Source of the DNA: Bacteroidota bacterium
Lineage (GTDB): Bacteria; Bacteroidota; Rhodothermia; Rhodothermales; UBA10348
NCBI GenBank assembly: GCA_027622005.1
Contig: JAQBZH010000005.1
Span: 19,623-83,622 of the forward strand
Direction: 5' to 3'
DNA length: 64,000 bases
Each line of letters begins with the position of its first letter. The stretch's first letter is position 1. The translations under genes and the position numbers were made by a program. The notes under the pieces are model-generated. The model did no database searches. It was given only the letters and a program-made list of their open reading frames with translations, and had not been told where the DNA came from. Positions 17,559 to 62,350 of this stretch are shown in pieces.

Positions 17559-20000
17559 TTAGTCTTCTTTGACTTCGGATTCAGCGGCGTCGGCCTCAGT
17601 AGGAGCTTCCTTTTGGGCAACGTCTTCATCGGCTTTCGCCTTTGCTTTAGTCGCTTTCTTCGGCTTTTCTTCCGCAACAACCTCTGCTTCCGCTTCAGCT
17701 TCGGCTTTCGCTTTTGCCTTTGCCTTTGCCTTTGCTGGAGTGGCGGCTTCCTGCTCTTCCATCTGAGCGTTGAGCGCAGCTAATCCCGAAAGTTCTCCGA
17801 GGGTAGTTGGACCACTGGTAGAAGATTCTGCTTCGATGAACTCACGAATTTCGCGTGCTTCTTGCTTACGAGATTCGGTTTGCTCACGCTTTTCAGCTTG
17901 ACGTTCTGCGCGCTCCTGGGTGCGTGCATGTTCTGTCGCGCTAAGCACAATTTCCTTCTGATTGGCGTCAAAGCGAATAACAAAGAGATTCTCTATGGCT
18001 GCTCCTTCTTTGAAATCAGCCAGATTCGTCCCAGCAGGTAACTCCCGTTCAGGTACGAATGCTTCTACTTCCATCGGAAGTTCAACTACCATACCCTTGT
18101 CTTCGACACGAACAACTTTGGCACTGGTAACAGATCCTTCTGAATAGACCTGAGCAAACGTATTCCAAGGATTGGTTTCAACCTGCTTGTGGCCCAAGGA
18201 GATACGACGATCTTTGGTGTCGATGTTCAGAACGACGACATCCAATTCCTGTCCTTTCTTGACCATATCGGAGGGGTGACGAATCCGTTTTGTCCAGGAT
18301 AGGTCACTAATGTGTACCAATCCGTCGATACCCGGCTCAATCTCAACAAACACACCAAAGTTGGTGATATTGCGAACTTTGCCGCGCATAACTGTTCCGG
18401 GGGGGTAACGCTCCGCAATGTTTTCCCATGGATCGGGCTCAAGCTGCTTCATTCCAAGCGAAATCTTTTTGCCTTCTGAATCCACATTCAAAATCTTGAC
18501 TTGCACAATCTGGCCAAGCGAGACCATTTGCGAAGGATGACGGATATGCTCTGTCCAGCTCATTTCTGAGATATGAACAAGTCCCTCGATCCCTTTTTCC
18601 AACTCGACAAATGCGCCGTAGTCCGTAATGGAAACGACTTTGCCCTCGACGAGCTGGTTGCCAGCCACTTTTGCTTCGATGTCTTCCCAAGGATGTTTTT
18701 GCAACTGCTTGAGACCCAACGAAATACGCTGACGGTCTTTGTCGTAATCCAGGACTACAACATTGAGTTTCTGATCTAACGTGACGAGTTCTGATGGGTG
18801 CGAAACGCGGCCCCATGACAAGTCCGTAATGTGCAGAAGTCCATCAACACCACCCAAATCAATAAACACACCGAAATCGGTGATGTTTTTGACAATGCCT
18901 TCCAGAATCTGACCTGGCTCCATTGTCAACAAAATCTTCTCGCGCTGCGCCATAAGATCTTTTTCGATCAGCGCTTTGTGAGATACGACGATGTTTTCGT
19001 TGGTTGGATTGAGCTTAACAATCTTAAACTCCATGCGTTTTTCGAGATACGCATCGAAATCGCGTACTGGACGCACGTCGATCTGAGATCCTGGAAGGAA
19101 TGCTTCCATTCCGTCTAGAAGCTCGACAATCATACCGCCTTTGATACGACGAACAATCAAACCTTCCAGGACTTCTTCATTATTGAAGGCGTCCTCGATA
19201 CGGCGCCAGCGGCGAACCGTATCTGCCTTGGTCTTCGAAAGAACGAGCTGACCGTGATAGTCTTCAATTCTTTCGAGGTAAACTTCAACTTCTTGACCGG
19301 CTTCTAGATCAGCACCGAACTCACTACGAGATACGATACCGTCCGATTTAAAGCCGATATCAATTACAACGTCCTTTTCACCAACGCTAACCACCTTTCC
19401 TGATACGATTTCGTGTTCAGAAACATTGGTCAAGGTTTTTTCGACTAGTTTGCGGAGATCATCCAATCCCACATTCCAGTCTTCAGGATCTATGACTTTG
19501 TCTAGATCTTCTAATTTGTATACCTGACCGGTTATTTCCCCGGTGAATCCAAGCATGCCAGACCGAGGTGGAGAAGGAAGTTGTTTTTCAAACTCAGCAA
19601 CTTCTTCCTCTTCGTCATCGGCATCTTCATCACCATCGTCTTCAGACGCTTCTGCGTTGACAACGGTATCGGATTCGTCCACATCATCTCCAACAACATC
19701 CATATTGGAATCGTCAGAGATCACTTCAGGTTCGGTTTCCGCCACTTCAAGTTCAGCCGGCATTTCGGCCAAAACTTCAGCCGATTCCTCGACTTCAGGG
19801 GTACTTTCCACTTCCGCACTCGGGGCGGCTTCTTCTACTACAGGCTCTTCGACAACGGATTCCACTTTTGTTTCTGCCGTGGCTTCAACAGGGGCATCCG
19901 AAAGAGATTCTGTAGCAACCGCTTCAGGGGACTCAGAAACATCGATATTACCGACAATCTCTTCGTTTTCCTGAGCATCTTTCTGCTGATCATCAGCCAT
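17559..20000 (-). CDS. rpsA: 30S ribosomal protein S1 with long acidic N-terminal and Ala/Lys/Glu C-terminal extensions
   Basis: Six S1 domains (DIGFKSDG, AFLPGSQID, DFGVFIDLGGVDGLLHITD, YGAFVELEKGIEGLVHISE, FGVFVEIEPGIDGLVHISD); directly downstream of cmk. Confidence 0.96.
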   Translation of the reverse strand: MADDQQKDAQENEEIVGNIDVSESPEAVATESLSDAPVEATAETKVESVVEEPVVEEAAPSAEVESTPEVEESAEVLAEMPAELEVAETEPEVISDDSNMDVVGDDVDESDTVVNAEASEDDGDEDADDEEEEVAEFEKQLPSPPRSGMLGFTGEITGQVYKLEDLDKVIDPEDWNVGLDDLRKLVEKTLTNVSEHEIVSGKVVSVGEKDVVIDIGFKSDGIVSRSEFGADLEAGQEVEVYLERIEDYHGQLVLSKTKADTVRRWRRIEDAFNNEEVLEGLIVRRIKGGMIVELLDGMEAFLPGSQIDVRPVRDFDAYLEKRMEFKIVKLNPTNENIVVSHKALIEKDLMAQREKILLTMEPGQILEGIVKNITDFGVFIDLGGVDGLLHITDLSWGRVSHPSELVTLDQKLNVVVLDYDKDRQRISLGLKQLQKHPWEDIEAKVAGNQLVEGKVVSITDYGAFVELEKGIEGLVHISEMSWTEHIRHPSQMVSLGQIVQVKILNVDSEGKKISLGMKQLEPDPWENIAERYPPGTVMRGKVRNITNFGVFVEIEPGIDGLVHISDLSWTKRIRHPSDMVKKGQELDVVVLNIDTKDRRISLGHKQVETNPWNTFAQVYSEGSVTSAKVVRVEDKGMVVELPMEVEAFVPERELPAGTNLADFKEGAAIENLFVIRFDANQKEIVLSATEHARTQERAERQAEKREQTESRKQEAREIREFIEAESSTSGPTTLGELSGLAALNAQMEEQEAATPAKAKAKAKAKAEAEAEAEVVAEEKPKKATKAKAKADEDVAQKEAPTEADAAESEVKED

Positions 20001-56311: not shown

Positions 56312-57553
56312 TTATCTCGAACGAATAGCTTGTAGCGGTTCGATTCGCGCGGCATACCGTGCTGGGATGTACGAAGAAAGAGCACACAGGATCGTGGTTG
56401 CAACGGCTACCATCACGAAATCAACAATACTTAACTCAATCGGAGCGTATTTCATGTAGTAGGCTTCGGCTGGTAACGGGATCACATTGAACTTGAGTTG
56501 GATGATGGCAAACATTAAGGCCAGGATCTCCCCCATTAAGACACCAGTCACCCCCACATATAGACCCAAATGCACAAAAATGCTTCGACGTGTTTTAGCA
56601 GTGGCACCTAAACTGGCTAAAACGCCCATTTCTGAATTTTTTTCAAGGATGATCATCAAAAGAGTGCCGATAATGTTGATGGAGGCAACAAAAACGATAA
56701 TCGAAATAACCAGCGGGATAATCGATTCCTGCAACTTGACCCAGGCAAAAAGGCTGCGGTAGACGTCTGTTATCGGACGTGCAATGGACGGAAAAGTAAG
56801 CGATTGATCAATTTTATTGGCTGCTTCGGTATAATCCACGCCTTCGCGTACCCGCACGTCGAGTCGTGTGATCTGATCCGGGTTGTAGTCTAATAATTGA
56901 ATCGCGCGATCTAGAGCGACAAATACATAGAGCTCGTCGAAATTCGCGAGAGAAGTTTCATAAATGCCTCGCACCACGAATTGACTGACTCTAGGTGGCG
57001 ATAACGTAGAGGATTCGGAATCATGATTGACCGAAAAGGCTGTCATCGTCGAACCAATGGTCGCGGACATGAGTCGAGAGAGCTTCATCCCAATAACAAT
57101 TCCTGGTCTTCCGAGTGAATCTGGGCCCAAACTGGAATCACCCGAAACAATGGACGTCGAAACGAAGCTTGGAACCTCGGTAGTCCCCCAAATCGAGACC
57201 CCTTCCACGTCGGTCGAACTCTTGCGAAGCAACACAAATTCCTGAATGACGGGCGAAACGCTTTCTACCTCATCCATGCTTTGAACCAGCGAAACGAGCT
57301 CCGAAGAATCGTCGAGAGGGGCATCTTGCATGCTTTCGACCTGAACGTGCGCCCCGAATCCGATCACTTTTGAACGTATTTCTTGACTGAATCCCCGGAC
57401 AATGGATAGCGCCAGAATCAAAGTGGCTACACCTACAGCCACTCCTCCAATGGAGATATAGGTCACCAATTTGAGAAATTGACGTCCTTCTGAACGCCCT
57501 TCAGCACCTCTCAGGTAACGACGGGCTATAAATGACTCAATTTTAAATGACAA
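56312..57553 (-). CDS. LolC/E-type lipoprotein-releasing ABC transporter permease
   Basis: FIARRYL N-terminus, TM1 followed by a large periplasmic domain and three further TMs, YIPARYAARIEP. Confidence 0.88.
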   Translation of the reverse strand: MSFKIESFIARRYLRGAEGRSEGRQFLKLVTYISIGGVAVGVATLILALSIVRGFSQEIRSKVIGFGAHVQVESMQDAPLDDSSELVSLVQSMDEVESVSPVIQEFVLLRKSSTDVEGVSIWGTTEVPSFVSTSIVSGDSSLGPDSLGRPGIVIGMKLSRLMSATIGSTMTAFSVNHDSESSTLSPPRVSQFVVRGIYETSLANFDELYVFVALDRAIQLLDYNPDQITRLDVRVREGVDYTEAANKIDQSLTFPSIARPITDVYRSLFAWVKLQESIIPLVISIIVFVASINIIGTLLMIILEKNSEMGVLASLGATAKTRRSIFVHLGLYVGVTGVLMGEILALMFAIIQLKFNVIPLPAEAYYMKYAPIELSIVDFVMVAVATTILCALSSYIPARYAARIEPLQAIRSR

Positions 57554-57623: not shown

Positions 57624-57660
57624 ACGCTGGGCCTTCGGACAAAGTCCGAAGGCCCAGCGT
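57624..57660 (-). terminator. Terminator downstream of the giant GvpL/F-domain gene
   Basis: Perfect 17-bp stem ACGCTGGGCCTTCGGAC/GTCCGAAGGCCCAGCGT with a 3-nt loop, followed on the minus strand by GTTTGTTTTTG. Confidence 0.82.
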
Positions 57661-57691: not shown

Positions 57692-60600
57692 CTATGCAGG
57701 AATTTCTGACATGAAATATTCCTCGGAGCCTCCCATATCAACATCAACGAAGTGATACGGTGGCCAAGGACCACTTACTTCTATCGTAACCCCGAAATTC
57801 CGCATTTCCTGAGCTAGAGTGGTGACGCGGGCTCTGAAATTCTTTTCGCCTACCACGGGCACCAAGTAGGTTGAATTCAAAGCTACGATCATATTCTCAG
57901 CGGTTTGAGCGGCTGGAACTCCTTTCGAAACGGCCTCAGAGGCCATGTCATTGAGAGGAGCGTGGATACGTCGGGCAACATTGGCCATGATCGCGTCAAG
58001 CGAAAAGCCACCATCTTTTGAATATTTCTGTTGATCGACGATTCCCTTGAACTCGGCGCTTGAGAGCAGACGCTCTGCATCACAAACGACGCGAATTCCA
58101 AACTCACTCTTATCCTGGAGCCGCGAAAGCGTATCCAGCATTTTGGATCGTTGGGTTTCAACGAAGCGGCGAATACCATTTTCCGAACTAAAGACCGTCC
58201 CGAAGCGAAGCGGAATGATGGTCATCAATCCTTTTGCCTCAGAGAGGACACCAGCGTGGTGACGAACCTGATCCTTCAACCATCCGTTGTCCCGCATGGA
58301 CTTGCGGATCACGTAAGGAGAAAAAGCTGTATCAGTTAACTTGCTGACAATAGCCGTCAAATTTCCACAAGGCAATGAGTACACTACCGAACGTTCTTGA
58401 AGGCCTTCGATACCAGCAAACATCGAGTCCACGACCTGATTCGTCGAAACGATTCCGTACATATAAAATGTAGGTTCATTGAGGTTCTTTCTGATTTCGG
58501 CGATTTCTGGAGCCAGACCATTGGATCCATCTCCAGCCGGGGTTTTTACGGTAGAAGGACTGTTGACCGTAAATTCTGAAACTGACCACAATTTCGGCGT
58601 AGGTGTCGAGTCTGAAGGCGCCACGTCAACATTATCAGATTCGTCGAGCGAAGACTGATCTTGATTGTTATCAACCGAACTTGATTCATTCCTTGGCGAC
58701 TCTTGGATATCCGAAAGCAAGGTCCAGTCATTTGGATTTCTTTCTGGAGCTACGTCTGCGCTCACGGGCTGATCGGACTCGGCACTTTCTGGTGCCGAGG
58801 GCTCAGGCTCGATCGAAACCAAGAGCTCAGGGGCTATCGATGCGACTGTTTCCTGCGTTGGCGATACCGAGGGCTCTGCGTTTACCGCTGAAACTTCTGG
58901 TTCACTTACCGATGGCTCGCTAACTAAAGGTTCACTTACCAATGGCTGGTTCATATTGGAAGGCGCGACGGGTTCTGCAAAAACCTTGAGACTGCTTTTG
59001 AAAAACGCCTTTTCGGCTTCGTGAGAACCATCAGACACTTTGTCTTTAATTTCTTGCAGCGCATGGGCTAGCAGTCTTTCGATCATTTGATCATGAACGA
59101 TTTCCTGGACGCGGCTAATTACCTCTGTTTCTTCTTGAACACGACTCAGCACGATTTCTGCCGTTTTGTCGGATTCTGAAACGGATGCCAGGGATTTATC
59201 TGCTACATCTTGAATCAGCATATCGTAAACCTTATTGGTAGCACCAATAATGCTTGCATGAGTAGCTGGGATCAACGCCCGGGACTCAGTGACGACGGAG
59301 GCAACATCCGAAATTCTGGATGATGCTGATTCCGCAATGCTGGCCACTAATTGGTCCCGCACTTGATCAATCGCTTTAACAACGGCGACTGTTTCCATAT
59401 CCACTTTGTGGAATGCACGCTTGGCAACGGCATTCGTATCGGCAAGATCAGCAGTCGAATCGCTAGCAATTGCTTCAAGAATCTTATTCGAGAGCGCTTT
59501 TCTAACGGCTTCTATTTCTTTGTCAGCTTTCAGGAAAGCCGAAGCTTTTTCAGAAGCTAATCCGACTTCGTATAGACGCTTGGTGGCATAAGCGGCTACT
59601 TCAGAAAGCAGCATATTTTCTAATACGTCCGCGGCTTGAACTACAGTCGGGATGTCCTTCGGCATTCGGCCTCGGGCTTCTTCTGAAATTCGGTCCGTGC
59701 AGTGTAAACGCGTCTCAGTAAGGCTAATAATTTCGTCAACCATTTTAGAAACGGTCAGCCTAACGGCCTTTTGAACAGCCTCATGATCGTCCATTATTTG
59801 GGCTGAAGAATCTTGGGCTACTTTATCCGTGTCTTCGAGCTCTGTTTTTACAAAGTCGGTAATACGGGAGACCAGTTCTTGTCTGCTTGCTTTGACGGCA
59901 TTTCTAATCTGTATCGTATCCGCCGTAAACTCTGGAGCGATTTTGCGAACAACGGATTCTGTATCTGACATCTGTTGATGGACCAGCACAGAAATGACCT
60001 GGTTTGCCGTTTTGACTACTTCGGCAACCGCCAGCTGAATGAATGAGTCTCCTTCATTCACCCATTTACGGGCATCTTCCTGAATACTTTCGGCATCGCC
60101 AAAAGTGACCAGGGTCCGGTTAGCAACATCTTTAAGCACATTGGTCCGCAGAATTCCGATCGCGGATATCAATGAGTCGTGTTCGAAAGCGAAGTGATCC
60201 GTCGCCGCTTTAGCTGTTTGATCAGCATCGGAAAGCTGCGCGAGCGTACGTTCAGCGATTTGTTCGACGACCCGGCCCTTGACGTTTTCTACTAAGGAAG
60301 CAATCAATTCGAAATCTTGATATACGTGGTTGGCTGCGTCAGAGATCGTTTCAGTAGACTGTTCGATGGACGTTTTAGCAACTGTTCCCAGCCTTTGAGC
60401 AAGCTCAGCCGTAACTCGGTTCTTGGCAGTCTCAATCCATTTTTCATCTTGGACAACCGCTTTTGATGCGTTTTCAACGACAACTTCAACTGTTGGAGCA
60501 TCTTTGATCAATGCATCGGCAACATACTGACTCAATTGCTTGGTCAATTCTGTTGATTCCGATTTACTGACGGCAGCTAGCTTCTTATTAAAGCTCGATT

Positions 60601-62350
60601 TGATCGACTTGATCAAACTGCTGGTAATCGATTCTGCTTTTGCTTTCAGCGATTGGTCTGTTTCAGAAACGACCTTAGCTCTGTTGGATTCGATGATCTC
60701 ATCAAAATCCACTGCCTGAATTCTTTCATTGATCAGCTCGTAGACTTTTTGGTCTAATTCTTTTTGAATACCAGAAACGTCGAAGCTTGAAATCTGCTCG
60801 CTTACGATAGCATCAGCTTCCATTCGAACCTGGGAATTCAAGTCATTCGCGACTGTTTCCAACAATTTCGCTTTGTGTTCAGATACGCTATTCGCGATAT
60901 CTACAGTTTCGAAGTTCTTTTTGAACTCGTCAGAAATAATCTGTGTAATTTCGGATTGAAGACCTGAACTGTCTTTCTTTATGATTTTTTCGGTCCGAGA
61001 TACAACTTCCTTACGAGCACGGTCCAAGCCAGACTCGAGTTTAGTAACACTCAATTCATTCCATTGCTGCTCGACCTGGGTTACCCTGGTTTCAAGTTGT
61101 GCTATAACCGAATCCGAAGCTTTTTTAGTTGCCGATTCGAACAGGTTCTCAACTTCTTTCTGAAACGAAGCAATCATCTCCGAAGAAGTGGCTACTGCTT
61201 TTGCTTTCAGTGATTGGTCAACTTCGGAAACGACCTTAGCTCTGTTGGATTCGACGATCTCATCAAAATCCACTGCCTGAATTCTTTCATTGACCAATTC
61301 GTAGACCTTTTGGTCTAAATCTTTTTGAATACCAGAAACATCGAAGCTTGAAATCTGCTCGGTTACGATAGCATCAGCTTCCATTCGAACCTGGGAGTTC
61401 AAGTCATTTGCGACTGTTTCCAGTAATTTCGCCTTGTGTTCAGATACGCTTTTCGCGATATCTACAGTCTCGAAGTTCTTTTTGAACTCGTCAGAAATAA
61501 TCTGTGTAATTTCGGATTGAAGACCTGAACTGTCTTTCTTTATGATTTTTTCGGTCCGAGATACAACTTCCTTACGAGCACGGTCCAAGCCAGACTCGAG
61601 TCTAGTAGCACTCAATTCATTCCATTGCTGCTCGACCTCGGTTACCCTGGTTTCAAGTTGTGCTAAAACCGAATCCGAGGCTTTTTTAGTTTCCGATTCG
61701 AACAGGTTCTCAACTTCTTTCTGAAACGAAGCAATCATCTCCGAAGAAGTGGCTGCTGTTTGTTGCTCGATGTTTGCAGCGACTCGCGCGAATTGATTGT
61801 TGAGGTTGGACTGAAAGTCGTGGACAACTCCTTCTGAAATTTCAGCTGTCTTCTTCTGAAGGGATGCTTCAATATCTGCCAGCAACGCGTCCTTATTGAC
61901 CTCAACTATATTGTCTAGGTCGATCGTAGACAGTTTCTCTTCGAGAACCTGCCTCGTTTGCGACTCTAAATCTTGCTGGAGGGTGTGAAGATTGATATCA
62001 GCCAAACGCACCTTAACCATGTCAGATGCCAACGATCCAACCCGTTCATCAAGGAGCTCTTGAACCGAAAGGGACAATCTGTCCTCCGTTTCACCAATAC
62101 GAGCATCCAAATTAAGATCTTGTAAGCTTTTTTCAAACTTAGATTCGATCTGGTTCTCTACGCGAGCGCGCAAAGAGCTTGTATCGACGTCTGCAACGAC
62201 GGACTGTACCATTTCATTGAACGATGCTTCGTCCAGTTTTGACACTTCGTCGACAACCTGTTGCATCAAGGATCGCAACAGTTGCTTTTTAACGGCTTCA
62301 CGGGCGTCGACGGAATTTTGTTGGTTCGGTTGATTCTGCTTAGAAAACAT
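57692..62350 (-). CDS. Giant helical-repeat protein with C-terminal GvpL/GvpF (gas vesicle protein) domain
   Basis: Last ~250 aa carry FYMYGIV, GNLTAIVS, HHAGVL, TIIPLRFGTVF, LSRLQDKSEFGIRV, LNSTYLV, EVSGPWPPYHFV, all typical of GvpL/GvpF. Upstream are a P/S/E-rich linker and about 1100 aa of amphipathic helical repeats. No signal peptide or TM seen. Confidence 0.88.
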   Translation of the reverse strand: MFSKQNQPNQQNSVDAREAVKKQLLRSLMQQVVDEVSKLDEASFNEMVQSVVADVDTSSLRARVENQIESKFEKSLQDLNLDARIGETEDRLSLSVQELLDERVGSLASDMVKVRLADINLHTLQQDLESQTRQVLEEKLSTIDLDNIVEVNKDALLADIEASLQKKTAEISEGVVHDFQSNLNNQFARVAANIEQQTAATSSEMIASFQKEVENLFESETKKASDSVLAQLETRVTEVEQQWNELSATRLESGLDRARKEVVSRTEKIIKKDSSGLQSEITQIISDEFKKNFETVDIAKSVSEHKAKLLETVANDLNSQVRMEADAIVTEQISSFDVSGIQKDLDQKVYELVNERIQAVDFDEIVESNRAKVVSEVDQSLKAKAVATSSEMIASFQKEVENLFESATKKASDSVIAQLETRVTQVEQQWNELSVTKLESGLDRARKEVVSRTEKIIKKDSSGLQSEITQIISDEFKKNFETVDIANSVSEHKAKLLETVANDLNSQVRMEADAIVSEQISSFDVSGIQKELDQKVYELINERIQAVDFDEIIESNRAKVVSETDQSLKAKAESITSSLIKSIKSSFNKKLAAVSKSESTELTKQLSQYVADALIKDAPTVEVVVENASKAVVQDEKWIETAKNRVTAELAQRLGTVAKTSIEQSTETISDAANHVYQDFELIASLVENVKGRVVEQIAERTLAQLSDADQTAKAATDHFAFEHDSLISAIGILRTNVLKDVANRTLVTFGDAESIQEDARKWVNEGDSFIQLAVAEVVKTANQVISVLVHQQMSDTESVVRKIAPEFTADTIQIRNAVKASRQELVSRITDFVKTELEDTDKVAQDSSAQIMDDHEAVQKAVRLTVSKMVDEIISLTETRLHCTDRISEEARGRMPKDIPTVVQAADVLENMLLSEVAAYATKRLYEVGLASEKASAFLKADKEIEAVRKALSNKILEAIASDSTADLADTNAVAKRAFHKVDMETVAVVKAIDQVRDQLVASIAESASSRISDVASVVTESRALIPATHASIIGATNKVYDMLIQDVADKSLASVSESDKTAEIVLSRVQEETEVISRVQEIVHDQMIERLLAHALQEIKDKVSDGSHEAEKAFFKSSLKVFAEPVAPSNMNQPLVSEPLVSEPSVSEPEVSAVNAEPSVSPTQETVASIAPELLVSIEPEPSAPESAESDQPVSADVAPERNPNDWTLLSDIQESPRNESSSVDNNQDQSSLDESDNVDVAPSDSTPTPKLWSVSEFTVNSPSTVKTPAGDGSNGLAPEIAEIRKNLNEPTFYMYGIVSTNQVVDSMFAGIEGLQERSVVYSLPCGNLTAIVSKLTDTAFSPYVIRKSMRDNGWLKDQVRHHAGVLSEAKGLMTIIPLRFGTVFSSENGIRRFVETQRSKMLDTLSRLQDKSEFGIRVVCDAERLLSSAEFKGIVDQQKYSKDGGFSLDAIMANVARRIHAPLNDMASEAVSKGVPAAQTAENMIVALNSTYLVPVVGEKNFRARVTTLAQEMRNFGVTIEVSGPWPPYHFVDVDMGGSEEYFMSEIPA
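59075..60391 (-). repeat. Ten tandem 44-aa protein repeats (aa 654-1092)
   Basis: Manual alignment gives nine 44-aa units and one 43-aa unit, 439 aa or 1317 bp in total, e.g. IAERTLAQLSDADQTAKAA..., VANRTLVTFGDAESIQEDA..., IAESASSRISDVASVVTES... Confidence 0.8.
60634..61755. repeat. 561-bp in-frame tandem duplication (187 aa, two copies)
   Basis: Copies 60634-61194 and 61195-61755; about 27 mismatches by hand count (roughly 95% identity) and no indels. Confidence 0.95.

Follow-up and report, generated by a model that had tools for sequence, protein, structure and literature searches.

The 64,000-nucleotide (nt) stretch of DNA considered here (the window; positions 19,623 to 83,622 of contig JAQBZH010000005.1, assembly GCA_027622005.1, from a Bacteroidota bacterium) contains at 57692..62350, on the minus strand, a giant gene whose 1552-amino-acid (aa) product ends in a GvpL/GvpF domain, preceded by a long array of predicted helical repeats and an acidic linker. 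The protein is a conserved and so far undescribed variant of the GvpL/GvpF domain family. Our preferred reading, to which we assign a probability of about 0.58, is that it is this genome's ortholog of a scaffold or tether of the cytoplasm that is restricted to one bacterial order, acts independently of gas vesicles and is built of two conserved ends separated by a fast-evolving spacer. The gene has been kept at one site across the order without gas-vesicle genes, and the domain therefore probably works outside gas vesicles.

The open reading frame (ORF) is intact, with an ATG start and no internal stops, as it had been called in a preliminary description of this DNA. All features of the gene described below lie on its own, minus strand. 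The product is acidic (isoelectric point, pI, 4.72; net charge -89) and lacks any hydrophobic stretch of membrane length, the 19-residue Kyte-Doolittle mean peaking at 1.24, and nothing resembling a signal peptide was seen at the N-terminus of the 1552-aa sequence; together, the missing hydrophobic span and the missing signal-like start fit a cytoplasmic location. Acidity was also considered as a special trait of the protein and rejected, since a pI below 5 was found in 7 of the 42 large ORFs of the window (the median pI of the window ORFs being 5.75).

The C-terminal GvpL/GvpF domain

By both sequence and fold, the C-terminus belongs to the GvpL/GvpF superfamily. The Pfam profile GvpL_GvpF (PF06386) matches aa 1295-1536 (57743..58468) with an E-value of 1.2e-36 and 127.4 bits, against a cut-off of 23.6, and the match spans the full length of the profile (positions 2-245 of 245); in a six-frame search of the genome with the GvpL/F profile the giant gene scored 133.3 bits. 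The domain had been recognized in the preliminary description from a series of short motifs, all five of which are in place: YMYGIV (aa 1296-1301), PLRFGTVF (aa 1380-1387), LSRLQDKSEFGIRV (aa 1408-1421), NSTYLV (aa 1492-1497) and SGPWPPYHFV (aa 1526-1535). An AlphaFold2 model of aa 600-1552, built from 33 homologs, gave the domain a predicted local distance difference test (pLDDT) score of about 88-96. When the modelled domain was compared with solved structures by Foldseek, the two leading matches were GvpF proteins (6l5d_A, E 3e-11, template-modelling score, TM, 0.77; 4qsg, E 2.3e-10, TM 0.72), followed by ACT-like tandem domains at E 8.5e-4 or worse, so that the domain is predicted to adopt the GvpF fold.

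Sequence comparison places the domain in the superfamily at some distance from its standard members. A sequence search of the PDB returned 4qsg as its sole match (E 0.74), and a search of the ESM Atlas with the whole protein produced a single lead, a GvpL/GvpF cluster with a score of 0.87. The best NCBIfam match was the GvpL equivalog (NF045778), a weak one with 34.9 bits against a cut-off of 200; the domain is therefore a member of the superfamily and not a standard GvpL. Twelve of 19 core columns, each at least 80% conserved in 21 GvpF/L proteins borne by gvp clusters, keep their residue in the 23 orphan forms of the order, and the canonical H-E..(I)E..M motif of the cluster-borne proteins is altered in these forms. 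The domain has residues that are nearly invariant across 34 aligned relatives.

Gas-vesicle genes in the host, its relatives and the phylum

The host genome (2.79 Mb in 96 contigs, 97.53% complete) yielded a single GvpL/F match, the giant gene itself. Profiles of GvpA, GvpK, GvpO and GvpG found nothing in the whole host genome, the first two having detected their targets in a genome of the same order that served as positive control (G029; three GvpA genes, and GvpK at 118.8 bits) and the GvpO and GvpG searches being without such a control. For GvpN only a generic AAA match was obtained (21.5 bits against a cut-off of 266.8), and GvpJ, GvpK and GvpM(S), the partners of GvpL, were not found in the host genome. 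The absence of shell and assembly genes, first remarked upon for the surroundings of the giant gene, hence extends to the genome as a whole.

The same pattern is seen among relatives. GvpA was found in none of the 25 same-family genomes, of which 23 match the giant protein, and in 2 of the 41 relatives (G029 and, weakly, G039). Among 251 genomes sampled from the phylum, GvpL/F was present in 39 and GvpA in 26; 25 genomes had both, one had GvpA only and 14 had GvpL/F only, and all eight GvpL/F-positive genomes of the window's order fall among these 14. Genomes of the sample with a gvp cluster carried two to six short GvpL/F copies (frames of 231-373 aa, scoring up to 238 bits). The giant gene differs from a gas-vesicle accessory gene both in lying outside any gvp cluster and in its length, 1552 aa as against about 200-350 aa for the single-domain proteins. 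Two interpretations had been offered at the outset. The first, a role as scaffold or ruler of gas vesicles whose genes lie elsewhere, finds no support in a genome with no GvpA, GvpK, GvpO or GvpG match and a family in which GvpA was not found. The second, a repurposed GvpF/L fold, for which a filament or an inclusion coat had been suggested as possible roles, is in keeping with the phylogeny, with the way the family is distributed and with its fixed locus outside gvp clusters.

Distribution and length variation of the family

Matches to the giant protein were obtained in 33 of the 41 related genomes, with 22 of the 24 other same-family genomes and 10 of the 16 from other families of the order represented, and altogether 11 of the 17 families searched in this order have a match. 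The match in G001, a genome of the same genus, comprises the last 27 aa only, because the contig ends there. When aa 1-1130 were compared with 1.84 billion representative proteins, 37 matches were found at E <= 1e-3. PF06386 was present in 35 of 42 related proteins scanned (the matches to aa 1-1130, further relatives and the query), and four of the seven proteins without it were read, three being short pieces and one (P0041) carrying a receiver domain. The term "orphan" applied to the gene in the preliminary description is thus right as regards its position outside any gvp cluster and wrong as regards relatives, which exist in 33 of 41 genomes and as at least 37 database representatives. The statement that no protein of this architecture had been described agrees with a search of the full-text literature, supplements lying outside its scope, which returned no description.

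Judged by the sequences compared, the family defined by an N-terminal helix, 44-aa repeats, an acidic linker and a GvpL/F domain is restricted to one order, represented by metagenome-assembled genomes labelled Rhodothermales. The giant protein belongs to it by its domain order, by its place in a 24-row clade of domains (see below) and by its locus between pruA-like and permease genes. Length varies widely within the family. Same-family frames are intact at 958-1917 aa in 10 of 12 loci; when 52 ORFs were searched with a model of the 44-aa repeat, 17 of them, long forms of the order, contained 1-11 copies and the remaining 35 had none, and the spacer between the conserved ends ranges from about 10 aa, in forms of 312 aa, to more than 1500 aa. 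Several long-form paralogs were observed on different contigs of one genome, G038 (L048, L049/L054 and contig C68), in which one contig also has GvpL/F genes of 756 and 277 aa side by side.

Origin of the domain clade

A quick maximum-likelihood tree was computed from 52 GvpL/F domains, namely the domain matches at E < 1e-10 in the window and in loci L016-L050, with database proteins and the duplicate loci L051-L058 left out. All 23 orphan forms of the order fell into one 24-row clade (SH-aLRT 97), the remaining member of which is a 366-aa copy from a gvp cluster, that of G029. This copy adjoins a GvpA-family gene and another GvpF/L copy, with GvpK downstream, and shares with the orphan forms a 12-aa D..W insertion with a conserved Trp; it also has the N-terminal helix described below. 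The same Trp insertion is present in one paralog type of canonical gvp clusters. The presence of a cluster-borne copy within the clade suggests descent from a GvpL-like paralog, in which case the clade would stem from a paralog that survived the loss of its gvp cluster. G029 itself is without a long form.

The G029 locus (L028; G029:C7:10000-29999) is a complete gvp cluster from the same order, with three GvpA-family genes, four GvpF/L copies, GvpK, a GvpN-like AAA_5 protein, a GvpH/Hsp20-like protein and a CDC48-like double AAA ATPase, and it is adjoined by a gene for a GAF-domain protein. Single GvpL/F-domain proteins were also encountered in other families of the phylum (L036-L040, in G264, G091, G181, G233 and G169). 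Their frames measure 410-584 aa, their genomes have no GvpA, their N-terminal extensions are different and they form a long-branch clade of their own (SH-aLRT 100).

N-terminal helix, helical repeats and linker

Far from the GvpL/F domain, at about aa 14-40 (62231..62311), lies a conserved amphipathic helix (AREAVKKQLLRSLMQQVVDEV) that is common to the orthologs and occurs in looser versions in the short forms and in the cluster-borne copy of G029. A strict regular expression for this helix matched 12 of the 24 clade ORFs, the looser versions in the remaining ones having been judged by eye.

The region of about aa 56-600 is predicted to form long helices (for example aa 205-293 and 362-482) in a low-confidence model. 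Its first segment (aa 56-200; 61751..62185) weakly resembles the unit that follows, aa 56-187 having 23% identity to it. That unit, of 187 aa and with predicted very long helices, is duplicated in tandem at aa 201-387 (61190..61750) and aa 388-574 (60629..61189); the copies are identical at 174 of 187 aa and at 532 of 561 nt (94.8% of the DNA) and differ by 13 synonymous and 13 non-synonymous codon changes. The duplication is recent; P0003, the closest relative, aligns as if it contained the unit just once. A Tandem Repeats Finder (TRF) scan returned no rows, having missed the duplication because its period of 561 nt exceeds the TRF limit of 500 nt.

The most regular part of the array consists of eleven repeats of 44 aa at aa 612-1095 (59066..60517), which follow one another in exact register and without indels. 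Autocorrelation peaks at 44, 88, 132 and 176, a hidden Markov model (HMM) of the repeat has the consensus RTLTTLEDAEQVAEDARARVAEDHEIIRAAVAVLRQLLVSEVA, and each repeat is modelled as a helix of about 26 aa followed by one of about 11 aa. The "three tiers" of helical repeats described initially are accordingly real as repeats, the number of tiers being only roughly right given one weak unit, a 187-aa pair and eleven 44-aa repeats.

Between the repeats and the domain extends the P/S/E-rich linker of 165 aa that had been noted before (aa 1126-1290; 58481..58975). Its composition (18% D+E, 3.6% K+R, pI 4.05, with 13 and 10 Pro per 100 aa) and its pLDDT of about 31-35 in the model both point to an acidic, disordered segment. 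It contains the short motifs WTLLSD (aa 1209-1214), WSVSEF (aa 1255-1260) and GDG (aa 1273-1275). The two Trp motifs were considered as universal partner sites and rejected as such on account of their limited occurrence in the clade (counts given below), which leaves them as a lead for a close subgroup.

The helical part has no above-threshold Pfam match, and an ESM Atlas search with the N-terminal part gave no usable match. An assignment to DUF445 (E 5e-4) was rejected, its 20.4 bits falling below the cut-off of 33.8. A Foldseek comparison of the model of aa 1-1130 with the PDB returned nothing at E <= 10; the model being of low confidence, this empty result is no proof of a new fold. Scans with PADLOC and PHROGs found no families, and thus nothing pointing to defence or phage origin. 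The repeats are not always coupled to a GvpL/F domain. The 386-aa database protein P0041 has the same N-helix motif and repeats of the 44-aa type and ends in a receiver domain in place of GvpL/F, which suggests, from sequence alone, that the repeat stalk is a module able to carry different heads.

Reality of the gene

The giant gene is a real gene. Its architecture was checked on contigs from two DNA runs of a single study, which include the likely source run and are to that extent not independent of the assembly. That the ORF is an assembly chimera, combining a gvpF/L gene with an unrelated repeat gene, might be proposed because in the likely source run the gene is interrupted by a contig break at 60724-61725; there a 70-kb contig covering 57600-60724 ends and a 12-kb contig covering 61725-62450 begins, and no single piece spans the interval. 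The break, however, is the only one and coincides exactly with the 561-nt duplication, where the small pieces have depths of 11-17 (copy-specific) or 32 (shared) and show neither joints nor loose ends; a break confined to the duplication, with single and double depths, is the pattern expected of a real two-copy repeat in unitigs. Moreover, the junction of repeats, linker and domain lies within the single 70-kb contig, and independent support comes from other genomes, many of which have the same layout. The chance of a chimera is consequently negligible.

The locus and its neighbours

The giant gene is followed on the same strand by a permease gene with Pfam-confirmed MacB_PCD and FtsX domains (56312-57553, minus strand), and on its other side lies a pruA-like gene of the aldehyde dehydrogenase family (62735-, plus strand), which agrees with the position between a lolC/E-type gene and pruA given in the preliminary description. 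The terminator placed there after the gene was likewise recovered, as an intrinsic-terminator-like hairpin (57624..57660) that begins 32 nt after the stop codon and has an unusually long, perfect stem of 17 bp (12 of them GC pairs) followed by a T-run, GTTTGTTTTT. A scan for sigma-70 promoters returned no minus-strand site upstream of the giant gene, the consensus being one that may not suit the phylum of the host.

The divergent pruA-like gene, the giant gene and the same-strand permease were found in this arrangement in all 12 same-family loci, where the permease follows 12-160 nt after the giant gene, inside a block of about 20 kb (about 14 genes) that is collinear in these loci. The gap is just 12-40 nt in some relatives, and transcription units may differ between genomes. 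Among nine loci of other families, the trio is kept in four (f18, f12, f5 and f11), pruA alone in f8, and the G038 paralog lies elsewhere; the other three carry short forms (312-319 aa in f3, a frame of 572-581 aa in f13) that adjoin sdhA/sdhB-like and LysM-SLT genes. Genus g7 of the same family departs from this arrangement: its two genomes have the pruA-like gene abutting the permease (L065 10235-13318; L066 9849-12912), the giant gene being cleanly absent.

Proposed function and alternative explanations

As a scaffold or tether, the protein would hold two contacts at a distance. The C-terminal domain may still take hold of a partner protein by a helix or a hydrophobic segment, as GvpF/L do in gas-vesicle assembly, this partner probably being a protein outside the GvpA family. 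The N-terminal helix would provide the second contact, and the repeat rod and the linker would set the distance or reach between the two.

Several observations weigh against this reading. The nodes that tie the G029 copy to its nearest neighbours in the clade are weak (SH-aLRT 80-82, in a quick tree). Two same-family orthologs are split by one in-frame stop each (TGA in G010, L016 7915-13394; TAG in G004, L017 7950-11759), a state that may go back to a sequencing error, mark a pseudogene or be a genuine division of the gene. The junction of pruA and permease genes in g7 indicates that the giant gene was lost in that genus and is therefore dispensable there, and the collinearity of the surrounding 20 kb means that vertical descent alone may account for the fixed locus. 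The model of the helical region (aa 1-1130) has a mean pLDDT of 62 and a predicted TM score (pTM) of 0.23, so that its three-dimensional shape is a low-confidence prediction. Finally, the Trp motifs of the linker are only partly conserved, W..LS[DE] being present in 11 of the 24 clade ORFs and W.V.EF in 7.

Other explanations have to be weighed against the scaffold or tether. The protein could be a cytoplasmic accessory of the downstream MacB/FtsX-type (LolC/E-like) permease, for example one tethering it to another structure. The permease with its two confirmed domains follows the giant gene closely in every same-family locus, and the arrangement recurs in four further families. Against this, a strong terminator-like hairpin separates the two genes in the window, the adjacency is unspecific within a collinear block of some 14 genes, the short forms of f3 and f13 have other neighbours, and g7 retains the permease without the giant gene, all of which makes such a role unlikely. 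A similarly small chance is given to the protein being the building block of a new intracellular structure, in which the GvpL-like head would capture the N-terminal helix of the next molecule, or a small partner, and form head-to-tail filaments or a lattice with a spacing set by the number of 44-aa repeats. Complex prediction for the N-terminal 60 aa with the GvpL/F domain (aa 1283-1552) scored 0.24 and 0.01, both under the mark of 0.32, a result that weighs neither for nor against head-to-tail binding. If true, this possibility would reveal helix capture as a generic activity of the GvpF/L fold, freed from gas vesicles.

It is quite improbable that the gene is a functionless relic, the remnant of a GvpL-like gene that has grown by slippage-type expansion of its repeats and is on its way to being lost. 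Loss in g7, the in-frame stops of two relatives, the very fast length change and low identity of the repeat part, and the equal numbers of synonymous and non-synonymous differences between the duplicated units would all suit a relic. What speaks against one is that 10 of the 12 same-family loci have a frame of 958-1917 aa free of stops, that matches occur in 11 of 17 families, that the domain has nearly invariant residues and that the opposite end of the protein keeps a conserved helix. Service to gas vesicles as a fused scaffold or ruler, with shell genes too divergent to be found or hidden in the 2-3% of the genome that is missing from the assembly, must be regarded as very improbable indeed. 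The domain is a bona fide GvpF/L, one member of its clade sits inside the real gvp cluster of G029 and the host genome is split into 96 contigs; yet GvpA was found in none of the 25 same-family genomes, including the near-closed G010 (3 contigs) and G022 (2 contigs), GvpK, GvpO and GvpG gave no match in that of the host, and G029, the sole clear gvp-cluster genome, has short GvpF/L forms only. The GvpA match of G039 reaches 25.9 bits, barely above the cut-off of 25, and lies on a different contig from that genome's weak giant-protein match, a frame of 528 aa.

Comparison with known systems

Two systems of helical repeats resemble parts of the giant protein. GvpC is an acidic helical-repeat protein that coats gas vesicles and has repeats of 33 aa. 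The giant protein is likewise acidic, built of tandem helical repeats and linked to gas vesicles through its domain, but its repeat period is 44 aa and not 33, there is no vesicle to coat, and the GvpC family is not among its Pfam matches at E <= 1, which comprise GvpL_GvpF and weak sub-threshold ones. The polar hubs HubP and FimV have conserved end modules with long acidic repeat arrays between them that act as spacers or landing pads, and they possess a LysM domain and a membrane span. Unlike them, the giant protein lacks a hydrophobic span, and its Pfam matches include neither a LysM nor a FimV family; with no sequence relation between them, the likeness, an acidic repeat spacer between conserved ends, is one of analogy. 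Should the rod indeed serve as a spacer, bacteria would have in this family a new scaffold whose length varies naturally.

A further comparison is with GvpF and GvpL themselves. Cyanobacterial GvpF (4QSG from Microcystis and 6L5D from Anabaena) has the same two-lobed alpha/beta fold as that modelled for the C-terminal 240 aa, with TM values of 0.72-0.77, and the core motifs Y.YG, P.RFGT and GPWPPY.F are found in the giant protein too. According to excerpts of PMC11445434, GvpF and GvpL are essential for gas-vesicle assembly, by a mechanism still unclear despite crystal structures, and the shell protein has in GvpF its primary, chaperone-like partner, which binds its N-terminal helix. GvpF is a single domain of about 240 aa that is encoded in a gvp operon and binds GvpA (the same excerpts), whereas the giant protein has 1290 additional aa, 17-18% identity to GvpF, no gvp cluster and no gvpA in its genome. 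GvpL, the accessory hub of haloarchaea and Bacillus, is the best, weak NCBIfam match of the giant protein (34.9 bits against 200) and offers a parallel in function, as a scaffold role has been proposed for GvpL and is suggested here. The binding of GvpL depends on GvpS, GvpK and GvpJ (PMC11445434, in part), and all accessory Gvp proteins are attracted by GvpL (PMC7688916, in part), while GvpJ, GvpK and GvpM(S) were not found in the host of the giant protein.

In these genomes, the annotation "gas vesicle protein" is no sign of buoyancy, a point that is relevant to the inference of traits from metagenomes. A GvpF/L fold that has long been kept without a shell protein, and tied to an adjustable rod, would constitute a natural experiment on the fold's own activity.

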